From the NCBI RefSeq assembly GCF_000185985.2, contig NC_014909.2:390001-422000 (forward strand): a stretch of 32,000 nucleotides of DNA, given 5' to 3'. Source of the DNA: Candidatus Saccharimonadota bacterium (lineage in GTDB: Bacteria > Pseudomonadota > Gammaproteobacteria > Enterobacterales > Enterobacteriaceae). Below are positions 1,326-16,729 of this stretch, piece after piece; positions within the stretch are counted from its first letter, which is position 1, and every line of letters begins with the position of its first letter. The notes below the pieces were generated by a model. It ran no database searches. It was not told where the DNA came from and worked only from the letters and a program-made list of their open reading frames with translations. A program made the position numbers and the translations under genes.

Positions 1326-1909
1326 TCATATTTTAGGGTGCAATTGATTCATGACTTTAACAAATTTATCAAATATTATATCTTCGATACATAATATCGC
1401 TTGATTCATGATAAAATCAATTTTTTTTTTTCATGAATAGAAGGAGAACTTAATACAAAATTTACAATTTCATTTTTATTTTTAGGACGTCCAATGCCTA
1501 TACGTAAACGATAAAAACCGTATTGGTTGCTTAGGTTATTAATAATATTTTGAATTCCACGATGACTTTCATATAATTTATTCCCTAACTTTATCCTGAT
1601 CATCCCAGGAGATAAATCTAATTCGTCATGAACTACCAATAATTCTTTTAAATCTAGCCGATATAACTTCATATATTTATATACCGCTAACCCACTCTCA
1701 TTAATGTAAGAATTAGGAATTAGTAATTGCACTGTCATTGACTTACATATCGTAAGTGATCCTATAAATCCAGATAAAATTTTATCTAATTTCAAATTAA
1801 CTTTATATTTTTTTGTCAGCATATGAATATACCGATGACCTATACTATGTCTAGTATTTATATACTCAGCCCCAATATTTCCTATCCCCACAATAAGTTT
1901 TATTGTCAT
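1326..1909 (-). CDS. pth: Peptidyl-tRNA hydrolase, interrupted by a frameshift at an A11 tract (frame 0 = 1406..1909, 167 aa; conserved C-terminus continues in another frame to a TGA at 1326-1328)
   Basis: The N-terminal 167 aa align with E. coli Pth (MTIKLIVG.GN.G.EY..TRH..G, HDELDL.PG, RLRIGIG.P). After the A-run, the other frame reads IDFIMNQAILCIEDIIFDKFVKVMNQLHPKI*, which aligns with E. coli [34 protein letters not shown]. One extra A gives 194 aa, the E. coli length. Confidence 0.85.
1421..1431 (-). repeat. Homopolymeric A11 tract (coding strand) at the pth frameshift site
   Basis: Eleven consecutive T on the + strand (1421-1431). Codons read GAA AAA AAA AAA TTG in frame 0. The conserved downstream frame starts at ATT (1421-1419). 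Confidence 0.95.
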
Positions 1910-5096: not shown

Positions 5097-6179
5097 ATGT
5101 TACATGACATTATAATAAACAAATTAACTATTTTACAAGAACGGTTTTATAAATTAAAACAACTAATTGAACATCCAAATCATATTCAAAACAATAAAGA
5201 TTTTCATTCCATATCTAAAGAATATGCTCATCTTGCTCATATAGTGACCTATTTTGAACAATGGTTAAATATACAAAAAGAAATTCTTCACACTAAAGAA
5301 ATACTTACTGATATAGATCTGCATGATCTTGCATTAGATGAATTAAAAAAATTAAATATAATAGAAAATAATCTTGAAAAAAAAATTAAAATTCTATTAT
5401 TGCCAACAGACCCTAATGATAAATATGGTTGTTTTATTGAACTACGAGCCGGTACTGGTGGAAAAGAAGCAGCTATATTTTCTGGAGAATTATTTCGAAT
5501 GTATACGCGTTACGCAGAAACACAACGATGGAATATAGAAATTATTCATGCTACATATGGAGAATATGGAGGTTATAAAGAAATTATTGCAAAAATTTCC
5601 TGTAATGGAGCTTATAATCAATTAAAATTTGAATCTGGAGGACATCGGGTTCAAAGAGTACCATATACTGAATCACAAGGACGTATTCATACCTCTACTT
5701 GCACAGTAGCTGTAATTCCAAAAATACCTGACATTAAATTACCTAATATTAACCCTAATGATTTAAGAATCGATACTTTTCGATCATCAGGAGCAGGAGG
5801 ACAACATGTAAATACAACAGATTCAGCAATTCGAATTACTCATATCCCTAGCGGACTATCTGTAGAATGTCAAGATGAACGATCTCAACATAAGAATAAA
5901 TCTAAAGCATTGTCAATATTACGTTCTAGATTATATGCAATGAATATTAAACGTCGAAAAATTGAAGAATCTAATTTTAGACGCAACTTGATAGGTTCTG
6001 GAGATCGTTCCGACCGGATACGTACATACAATTTTCAACAAGGACGAGTTACTGACCATCGTATCGATTTTACATCATATAAATTAAGTGATGTTATGGA
6101 CGGAGCTTTAGGAATTTTAATAAAACCTATTATATGTAAATATCGTTCTAAACTAATAGATCAATTAACACAATTATAA
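5097..6179 (+). CDS. prfA: Peptide chain release factor 1
   Basis: 360 aa, collinear with E. coli RF1. Shares the GGQ motif ([21 protein letters not shown]) and the ESQGRIHTS codon-recognition region. Confidence 0.97.
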
Positions 6180-7921: not shown

Positions 7922-8713
7922 AATAAGTAAATAACTTGCAGTTTTTAAGACAATAAATTACAGGTAATAACCTATTTTTAATTAAAAATAAAAAATTCTA
8001 TTTCAGAATCCAATAATTACTTGTATATTTTCTTATAATACAACAACCTATTCTTAATATTATACTTTATGTAATACAATAACGAATAAATTGACACTGT
8101 CAGTACTTCTATTTACCTTGAAATAAGAATTACGTTCTAAATAAATTAATTATTTATATATGTACTAATTAAAATAATACTAATTATTTTTTATTTTAAT
8201 TTAAAACATACAACAACAAATATTAAATATGATATTATGAAATGTACATTTTTGCTACTATATTAGTAAGAGTTATTAGTGATGAAAAATAAGTAAATGC
8301 AAGATAACAAACTAATATCTTCATTATATTGTCATATTAAAATATACCCTGCATTTATCTAGTTTTAAATTACCTTTAGAAGGTATTACCTAATATACTT
8401 AATACATAAAAATTTTTTAAAAATAGTATGATTTTTTATAAAAAATTGTTTAGTAAAATTAGATATAATAATTTTTAAATATACAACACAATAATAATTT
8501 TAAATTTAGAGAAAAAAATTAATTTTAGACTTATTGATAATTCAATTATACTAAATAAGAATAAAATTCTAATTAAACATAATATAATATAAAAAAAGTT
8601 TATAAACTTAAACAATAAAACAGATTTCATATGTATACATTTAAAAAGCATTAAATATATAATATACCTGTTAATTTAATATAAAAGTAATCATTAAGAT
8701 AAACCTGATTATT
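7922..8713. other. 792-bp non-coding AT-rich spacer at a synteny break (kdsA | thrS), at the position where the missing thrS 5' third would lie
   Basis: No ORF of 60 aa or more in any frame. The thrS frame is closed by a TAA at 8672. I saw no GC-rich patch that would suggest a structured RNA. Confidence 0.5.
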
Positions 8714-9949
8714 ATGGATAATCACTTTCAACAATACAAAAAAAAAGATCATCGTACCCTTTCAAATCAACTAGATTTATTTCATACACAAGACGATGCT
8801 CCAGGTATGATATTTTGGCATAAAAATGGGTGGATTATTTTTCAAGAATTAAAAAAATTTATTAGAAAAAAACTTCAACAATATCAATATCAAGAAGTAA
8901 AAAGTCCAATTATGATCGATCAGGAATTATGGAAAAAAACGGGACATTGGGATAATTATTATGAACATATATTCATTACTGCTTCAGAAAATCGTACATA
9001 TTGCATTAAACCTATGAATTGTCCAGGCCATATTCAAATTTTTAATTATGGTATAAAATCATATAAAGATTTACCTCTTCGTATAGCAGAATTTGGTCAT
9101 TGTCATAGAAATGAACCTTCTGGATCACTACACGGCCTTATGAGAATAAGAGAATTTACACAAGATGATGCGCATATTTTTTGTTCTATCGAACAAATAC
9201 CAACTGAATTAAACTATTGCATAAAAATGATGTATGATGTTTATCATACATTTGGTTTTAAAAAAATAATAGTTAAATTATCCACTCGACCAATAAAAAG
9301 AATTGGGGAAGATTCAATATGGGATATTACGGAACAATGTTTAGTTCATATTCTTCAAAAAAAGAACATCGAATTTACATATCAACCTCAAGATGGAGCT
9401 TTTTACGGACCTAAAATAGAATTTATTTTACTTGATTCTTTAAAAAGAGCTTGGCAATGCGGTACAGTACAATTAGATTTTTCTTTACCTAAATTACTAA
9501 AGGCTAAATACATAGATAACAATAACAAATATCAAATTCCAGTAATGATTCATAGAGCTATTTTAGGATCTATAGAAAGATTTATTGGTTTGATCACTGA
9601 GGAATATTCAGGTTTTTTACCAACATGGTTGGCTCCTACGCAAATTGTTTTAATGAATGTTACTGATGCACAATCTTTATATGTAACTAATATAGCGAAT
9701 AGGTTAAAATTTGAGAATTTCAGAGTACAAATAGATTTAAGGAATGAAAAAATAGGATGTAAAATTCGATTACATACCATGCATAGAGTACCTTATATGA
9801 TAATATGTGGAAATTCAGAAGTAGATCACGGTACAATATCTATACGTACTTTCCGAGGTAGAAAAATTAACAATTATAATATAGATACATTTATACAAAA
9901 ATTAAAACAAGAAATTAATACTTATAATTTTAATCAATTGGAGGAATAG
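8714..9949 (+). CDS. thrS: Threonyl-tRNA synthetase, catalytic core plus anticodon-binding domain only (N-terminal TGS/editing domains absent)
   Basis: The 411-aa ORF aligns end to end with roughly residues 237-642 of E. coli ThrRS (642 aa), from KDHR..S.QLDL.H.Q..APGM.FWH to the C-terminal QLEE. The zinc ligand contexts are kept ([30 protein letters not shown]). Confidence 0.9.
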
Positions 9950-16016: not shown

Positions 16017-16339
16017 TTAATATTTTAAACTATTTTAGTATAAAATATATACCATTGTCTCAAAAGTTATTTAAATTATATATAACTATTATAAGACTAA
16101 AAGTTAATCGAGGCACATATAATGCTGAAAAATTTATAATAACTATTGTATTATATTAATAATAATATTAACTATACTCTGTAATTTATGCATTTAATTA
16201 CGTAAATAAATAATTATTTATGTAATCTTTAAAAAAAAAATAAAGAGAATATTGACATATTCTTCAATTATTTCAACAAATTTTAATAAACGCTAATTAT
16301 AATTTTATAAAAATTAATTAATTTTAATGGGTAGTTACA

Positions 16340-16729
16340 ATGCAAAACACTATTGTACATAGTAATACATTTTTAAAATCCAATAAAAACATTCCTTGGA
16401 AAGGAGTTACATTAACAGATTCTGCAGCACAGCACATTCTTCAATTAATAAATAGAGAATCAAAAATTTTAGGATTAAAAATAACCATTAAAAAATCAGG
16501 ATGTGCTGGATTAACTTATCAATTAAGTAAAGTGTTTTATCCTGAACAAAATACCGTAGTTTATGAACATAATAGAGCTAAACTATTCGTTCCAATAAAT
16601 ATCATGCCTATTATTGACGGTACAGAATTAGATTACATTCAGGACGGTTTAAACTATTCATTTAAATTTAATAACCCTAAAGCTCAATTTCACTGTGGTT
16701 GTGGAGAAAGTTTTAGAATATATAAATAG
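16340..16729 (+). CDS. sufA: Fe-S cluster A-type carrier SufA
   Basis: 129 aa with the A-type carrier cysteines (GCAG ... CGCGESF). First gene of the sufABCDSE order. Confidence 0.92.
   Translation: MQNTIVHSNTFLKSNKNIPWKGVTLTDSAAQHILQLINRESKILGLKITIKKSGCAGLTYQLSKVFYPEQNTVVYEHNRAKLFVPINIMPIIDGTELDYIQDGLNYSFKFNNPKAQFHCGCGESFRIYK

Follow-up and report, generated by a model that had tools for sequence, protein, structure and literature searches.

The gene pth, which encodes peptidyl-tRNA hydrolase (Pth), is split by a frameshift in a run of 11 adenines (A11) in the ant symbiont Candidatus Blochmannia (Blochmanniella) vafer BVAF, the source of the 32-kb stretch of DNA analysed here (hereafter the window; 32,000 nucleotides). 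Beyond the lesion, a conserved and functionally important tail of the gene continues in the -1 frame, and a Pth of full length is restored when a single A is added to the run. With about even confidence, this configuration suggests that pth stays functional by slippage on the run, chiefly during transcription; both the occurrence of rescue and the machine that performs it are what we infer from the sequence. Pth recycles the tRNA of aborted translation and is essential in the bacteria tested; a symbiont that keeps it only as a frameshifted gene would show the reach of genome decay, with expression errors sustaining a core function. The frameshift and the slippage interpretation are already known, having been published for exactly this gene; given that the phenomenon was published in 2008 and this gene in 2010, the observation itself adds nothing new. 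New here are the comparison of codons with nine Blochmannia relatives, the statistics of tail versus body, the mapping of tRNA-binding residues and helices, and the check for structures that stimulate frameshifting.

A split pth gene and its out-of-frame tail

The pth locus occupies positions 1326..1909 on the minus strand. Frame 0, as it stands in the genome, is an open reading frame (ORF) at 1406..1909 (minus strand) that encodes 167 amino acids, ends in HEKKKLILS (C-terminal sequence ...SSPSIHEKKKLILS, followed by the stop) and is identical to RefSeq WP_236608337.1. It holds the catalytic residues N11, H21, N70 and D95 as well as the 5'-phosphate clamp K107/R136. The A11 homopolymer, a T11 on the plus strand and the longest homopolymer of the window, spans the codons GAA AAA AAA AAA at 1421..1431 (minus strand) and is the site of the frameshift and the putative site of slippage; four codons past the tract, the frame closes at a premature TGA (1406..1408, minus strand). 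The tail of the gene follows in the -1 frame at 1326..1421 (minus strand), where 31 codons and a stop (IDFIMNQAILCIEDIIFDKFVKVMNQLHPKI) encode most of helix α5 and all of α6. When the run is rewritten as A12, body and tail are joined into a protein of 194 amino acids that ends in ...HEKKKIDFIMNQAILCIEDIIFDKFVKVMNQLHPKI, with its stop at 1326-1328, and is identical to GenBank ADV33741.1 and UniProt E8Q6Z4. The translations and the positions of the homopolymer bear out what an earlier note on this DNA had claimed, namely that A11 splits the gene and that one added A yields exactly 194 residues.

Other tract lengths were translated likewise: A9 gives 193 amino acids, and A10 and A13 still leave the tail out of frame. 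The in-frame routes are the gain of one A or the loss of two in the mRNA, or a -1 shift of the ribosome, and every correction within the tract yields HEKKK-IDF... or its one-lysine variant. The junction of the restored frame would be spanned by ...SIHEKKKIDFIMNQ..., and the tail would be represented by the peptides IDFIMNQAILCIEDIIFDK and VMNQLHPK. The A11 run with its single indel is the sole lesion of the gene, and both parts of pth are open and homologous, as in the class of genes proposed to be rescued by slippage.

The out-of-frame tail is a genuine Pth C-terminus, as the earlier note had recognized. Against the Pfam family PF01195 (Pept_tRNA_hydro; cut-off 27 bits), the 167-residue reading scores 143.1 bits over profile positions 1-156 of 183, and the 194-residue reading 157.8 bits over the complete profile (1-183 of 183). 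A PDB search with the 194-residue reading matched Pth chains with E values down to 2.5e-43, and the solved enzymes of E. coli (2pth/3vjr) and Klebsiella align with it over residues 1-191, gap-free at the junction. Even residues 150-194 alone (45 residues, comprising the tail and the 14 residues that precede it) retrieved Pth chains as all of the top 15 PDB matches. In the -1 frame of the window's genes, only 1.9% of 31-codon stretches are free of stops. What carries meaning is that a homologous tail has stayed intact in the other frame, and not the homopolymer run itself: a first-order Markov model of the window expects 1.27 runs of at least 11 nucleotides (one observed) and 8.8 runs of at least 9 nucleotides (10 observed), and with expectation and observation this close, the A11 run is what a genome with 26% GC would yield by chance.

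What the truncation removes can be read from an AlphaFold2 model of the 194-residue reading (mean predicted local distance difference test score 93.9, predicted template modelling score 0.91, tail blocks at 94-98), which has helices at residues 158-173, 175-179 and 183-190. According to this model, the break falls after residue 163, six residues into α5, such that two-thirds of α5 and all of α6 are lost. The truncated product is thereby predicted to lack the whole C-terminal helical hairpin, which covers one face of the β-sheet and docks to the TΨC stem of the tRNA, and the 167-residue protein probably misfolds. In V. cholerae Pth, the equivalents of α5 and α6 lie over the central sheet on one of its faces (PMC5238795), and the C-terminal helix of E. 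coli Pth enters the TΨC stem's minor groove; mutations in E. coli Pth reduce kcat/Km 5.7-fold (N185A) and 5.4-fold (H188A) or increase Km more than 8-fold (K182A) (PMC3488237). The B. vafer tail retains the corresponding residues K185, N188 and H191 (K182, N185 and H188 in E. coli), the equivalents of which are kept in 15, 20 and 20, respectively, of 21 other Blochmannia Pth sequences.

A separate observation concerns an active-site asparagine position of the body, N114 in E. coli, which is R117 in B. vafer (~1559-1561, minus strand). Across Blochmannia, the residue at position 117 is most often H (9) or R (8) and is N in 4; in Buchnera and three other symbionts it has remained N.

Origin and reality of the deletion

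The other Blochmannia Pth proteins found in a protein search (n=21) measure 191-206 amino acids, and none of them is truncated. At the DNA level, all of nine Blochmannia relatives have 12 nucleotides at the codons of the tract, broken by at least one non-A base, and none is frameshifted; the codons read, for example, GAA AAA AGA AAA ATT, GAA AAA AAC AAA ATC or GAA AAA GAA AAA ATT, and in B. floridanus GAA GGT ATT CAG ATT. A comparison of tract length and frame with relatives, which the earlier note had put forward as a check, thus found the in-frame length in nine of nine and the frameshift in no other lineage. Twelve nucleotides at the same codons in nine relatives indicate that A11 is a 1-nucleotide deletion from an in-frame A12, and with this ancestral length it is A12, not A9, that is colinear with E. 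coli Pth. As far as these codons tell, the B. vafer ancestor presumably carried GAA AAA AAA AAA ATT and later lost one A. AT-biased mutation would have turned Glu-Lys-x-Lys-Ile codons into the uninterrupted A12, from which replication slippage would have deleted one A, as the relatives suggest. In a scan of genome contigs with a Blochmannia Pth alignment, only free-living gammaproteobacteria with generic Pth motifs appeared among the matches listed.

The B. vafer consensus rests on a majority call at 542x Illumina coverage, and a re-analysis at 930x revealed a second genotype in 18-44% of the reads. The two genotypes differ by 37 indels, only two of which are located in protein-coding genes, both of 3 nucleotides; since no coding indel between the genotypes changes a frame, pth is frameshifted in both, and a sizeable A12 sub-population is not seen. 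These published data on coverage and genotypes make a homopolymer sequencing error an unlikely explanation of A11. It also seems quite improbable that the true genome, or copies that co-exist with the sequenced one, carry A12, be it through under-calling after library amplification or through heterogeneity of the tract, with Pth intact in some chromosomes. Some points speak for it: long A/T runs are the commonest sites of indels, the Illumina GAII libraries were amplified by the polymerase chain reaction (PCR), and no Sanger verification of the homopolymer frameshifts was reported. An independent assembly was not found: Joint Genome Institute metagenomes, scanned with the exact flanks and with 8-15 nucleotides allowed for the tract, gave 0 hits, only the two NCBI entries are present in the protein collection, and a look-up of contigs encoding the 167-residue product yielded no further one. 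Against an A12 genome stands the majority call itself, at 542x and at 930x, together with the fact that real variants form a distinct class at 18-44% of the reads. In addition, B. vafer has 153 coding poly(A) tracts of at least 9 nucleotides, most of which are in frame (PMC3017870), as are the other runs of 9-10 nucleotides inside ORFs of the window, so that there is no sign of systematic under-calling. A phase-variable contingency locus was considered as well and rejected, pth being a housekeeping gene for which no polymorphism of tract length was reported at 930x.

The earlier note had listed the in-frame runs of 9-10 nucleotides in the window. All of the runs it named are located in uninterrupted ORFs, but the one in thrS lies at 8738-8746 instead of 8747-8755, and the list was incomplete, lacking an A9 at 5377-5385 and an A10 at 16231-16240. 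The former is in frame inside a 360-residue ORF (5097..6179); the latter is intergenic, ~100 nucleotides upstream of an ORF that starts at 16340.

Slippage rescue and its alternatives

Expression of the gene may proceed in the following manner: Standard decoding would stop after 167 amino acids, with the catalytic site kept and the hairpin lost. The main route to the complete enzyme would lead through RNA polymerase, which may re-copy one template T on the T11 template and thus produce an A12 mRNA, from which the 194-residue enzyme (...HEKKK-IDFIMNQ...) would be translated. Ribosomes that slip by -1 on the AAA-lysine codons may add to this, and their product would be the same protein. The outcome would be a reduced but sufficient amount of full-length Pth, originating from a minority of expression events. 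Slippage of bacterial RNA polymerases on runs of at least 9 A/T is well documented (PMC5009743). In Buchnera, 151 of 157 insertions made during transcription occurred in A/T homopolymers, 80% of the insertions were of a single nucleotide, and the insertion frequency climbs exponentially with run length up to 11 nucleotides (PMC5574713). The commonest slippage event, insertion of a single base, is exactly the correction that pth needs.

Rescue of this kind has been proposed before. In the report on the B. vafer genome (Williams & Wernegreen 2010, BMC Genomics 11:687; PMC3017870), pth is among eight genes that are frameshifted in homopolymer tracts, transcriptional slippage is proposed as their rescue, and the frameshifted homopolymer genes were annotated as intact ORFs. 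The genes dnaG, dxs, pth and ribF are frameshifted in B. vafer only and show no acceleration of their rates (1-1.5-fold, within the spread of 570 orthologs; PMC3017870). The locus analysed here does not differ in substance from the published B. vafer pth (GenBank CP002189), with which it shares position, tract, proposed correction and 194-residue translation. According to the accounts in PMC3017870 and PMC5009743, poly(A) frameshift genes of Buchnera and Blochmannia and their rescue by slippage were described by Tamas et al. (2008, PNAS) and Wernegreen et al. (2010, Molecular Biology and Evolution). The earlier note had assigned pth to this class, in agreement with the genome authors, who called the same gene (PMC3017870; ADV33741.1). 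To go by these accounts, pth resembles the class of Tamas et al. in that an obligate, AT-rich endosymbiont has a gene that is intact except for one indel within a long A/T run and shows no rate acceleration; in contrast, the frameshifts of the best-supported members of the class are conserved from one population or species to another and come with cDNA evidence, whereas pth is known from sequence and from one species. Since the cell cannot do without them, pth, dnaG and dnaX of B. vafer would be good test cases for the yield and the machine of such rescue. As to the database records, RefSeq WP_236608337.1 appears as an ordinary 'aminoacyl-tRNA hydrolase' and the GenBank/UniProt entry (E8Q6Z4) as a 194-residue conceptual repair, and neither entry hints at a frameshift.

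Several points weigh against rescue. Error-corrected RNA sequencing of Buchnera by Traverse and Ochman revealed no transcription error that restored a frame (PMC5574713); earlier estimates of corrected transcripts by reverse transcription PCR, which PMC3017870 quotes at ~30%, may for this reason be inflated. Among Blochmannia, only B. vafer has the pth frameshift, which is absent from the 21 proteins and nine DNA loci of the relatives; within B. vafer it is common to only two near-identical genotypes from one colony. On this distribution, nothing points to long-term upkeep, unlike the conserved frameshifts that have been used elsewhere to argue for selection. The tail itself is ambiguous. Its identity to other Blochmannia relative to that of the body is 0.93 in B. 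vafer, compared with 0.82-1.04 in intact relatives, and of the highly conserved columns, defined by agreement of 19 or more among the 21 other Blochmannia Pth, 1 of 10 tail columns and 3 of 67 body columns are changed (Fisher p=0.43), with 0-2 such tail changes in intact relatives. The one change, T175I, alters a residue that is invariant in the 21 other Blochmannia. The B. vafer tail is therefore no more degraded than the body, but at 31 codons and with the nearest relative ~62% identical, a recent frameshift would look alike, and in such a comparison, relaxed constraint on the tail would be almost impossible to detect. The earlier note had concluded from the retained homology that the tail is still translated; this step is not established, as the tests of tail versus body fit a recent frameshift equally.

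Part of the tail may, moreover, be dispensable in some settings, by analogy with shorter enzymes. Pth of Buchnera measures 176-177 amino acids and is naturally devoid of α6, and a T. thermophilus Pth mutant that lacks the last 16 residues still crystallises (PMC11994314). Both of these keep α5, so that the truncation in B. vafer is considerably deeper. Buchnera aphidicola Pth is likewise an endosymbiont enzyme and lacks the equivalents of N185 and H188, with K182 also missing in three of four aligned sequences; unlike the zero-frame product of B. vafer, it keeps all of α5 and ends in frame. The Buchnera proteins (P0035, P0070, P0079 and P0082) also lack the first four residues and represent a natural Pth without the contact to the TΨC stem.

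Taken at face value, these points would be compatible with the absence of any meaningful rescue: a recent, slightly deleterious deletion would have been fixed by drift, the tail would not yet have decayed for lack of time, and the truncated, weak or inactive Pth would mark the first step of gene erosion. We consider this rather unlikely. Only B. vafer among 22 Blochmannia lineages has the frameshift, the two genotypes that share it differ by a synonymous divergence (dS) of only 0.0017, and B. vafer carries eight such frameshifts versus four in each relative sequenced by 2010 (PMC3017870). The failure of Traverse and Ochman to find restored frames, the existence of short Pth enzymes and the lack of power in the tail test all leave room for it. 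On the other hand, Pth is essential in the bacteria tested (PMC3488237, PMC5238795) and intact in every other Blochmannia found, and the truncation, with most of α5 gone, goes well beyond those of Buchnera Pth and of the Thermus mutant, which makes misfolding probable. Some slippage on an A/T run of 11 nucleotides is also expected on general grounds.

The ribosome, rather than the polymerase, might be the machine that mainly slips. Ribosomes would then pause on the three AAA codons and slip by -1 within A11, the mRNA would remain A11, and the same 194-residue Pth, identical to the product of an A12 mRNA, would be made; we regard this mainly translational route as unlikely. The slippery heptamer pattern X XXY YYZ is present several times in the tract as A AAA AAA, and E. 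coli ribosomes are known to slide on at least three iterated AAA codons and to emerge in other frames (PMC4363877), but the main reported effect of sliding is a loss of output. A stimulatory fold was not detected in the 106 nucleotides around and downstream of the tract (z=-1.28, with 20 of 200 shuffled sequences as stable), an element resembling a Shine-Dalgarno (SD) sequence was not found in the 39 nucleotides upstream of it, and the tract is interrupted in all of the relatives read. With no fold, no SD-like element and an unconserved tract, any ribosomal contribution would be unprogrammed. One candidate hairpin, UUGAUU/AAUCAA right after the tract, was rejected because it arises from the codons and is also possible in a relative without the frameshift (P0003).

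A well-known parallel is the recoding of dnaX, for which a -1 ribosomal frameshift at A AAA AAG in E. coli and transcriptional slippage on A9 have been described (PMC5009743). In dnaX as in pth, polymerase or ribosome would shift the frame at a slippery, A-rich site; unlike in pth, however, recoding of dnaX is a programmed and conserved process that flanking signals assist, and its second product is useful, whereas the zero-frame product of pth is probably useless. It is very doubtful that the tract serves as a feedback sensor, comparable to the autoregulatory frameshift of prfB, in which low Pth would lead to less charged tRNA-Lys, to pausing on the lysine codons, to more -1 slips and hence to more full-length Pth. 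The only basis of this idea in the sequence is that the break happens to fall within a run of lysine codons in a gene that recycles tRNA-Lys. In E. coli, a shortage of Pth reportedly kills cells mainly because they are starved of Lys-tRNA(Lys), and ribosomal frameshifting is reportedly promoted at 'hungry' lysine codons.

Finally, the two parts of the gene might be made as a split enzyme. The frame-0 stop overlaps an ATG (ATGA, 1406-1409), which opens a 27-residue ORF beginning with MNQAILC (1326..1409, minus strand); re-initiation after the TGA would yield a separate peptide, MNQAILCIEDIIFDKFVKVMNQLHPKI, that would have to join the 167-residue body non-covalently. Only B. vafer has methionine at this position, which in the other 21 sequences is I (18), L (2) or V (1), and the methionine codon came about through a change that runs counter to the AT bias; the apparent absence of an SD sequence is no objection, given that most genes of the window lack a recognisable one. 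We nevertheless hold a split enzyme to be very improbable, and the ATGA overlap is probably a coincidence. The argument is post-hoc, and a single conservative transition suffices to change ATA into ATG. Residues 158-167 of α5 would be missing from the peptide, the body would carry four junk residues, and short free helices are usually unstable and degraded; a precedent for a split Pth was not found in the homology searches.

Other observations in the window

Translation starts in the window are poorly marked by SD sequences. The duplex with the anti-SD sequence has a median energy of +0.25 kcal/mol at the gene starts of the window and reaches -4 kcal/mol or lower in 5 of 24, versus 13% of all ATGs in the window; some of the starts assigned by the longest ORF may be wrong. 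With only 5 of 24 gene starts at this level, an SD analysis of the internal pth ATG is uninformative.

The thrS gene is truncated at its N-terminus. Its ORF at 8714..9949 (plus strand) encodes 411 amino acids, which comprise only the class II core and anticodon-binding domains, and lacks the TGS and editing (tRNA_SAD) domains. The 790 bp upstream (7922-8713) contain no ORF longer than 58 amino acids, have a GC content of 10-21% and are probably the eroded 5' part of thrS. Short threonyl-tRNA synthetases (ThrRS; 404-431 amino acids) are also present in B. floridanus, B. ocreatus and the symbionts of Colobopsis, and those of other Blochmannia measure 642-649 amino acids, which suggests that the ThrRS editing domain has been lost repeatedly or in a patchy manner.

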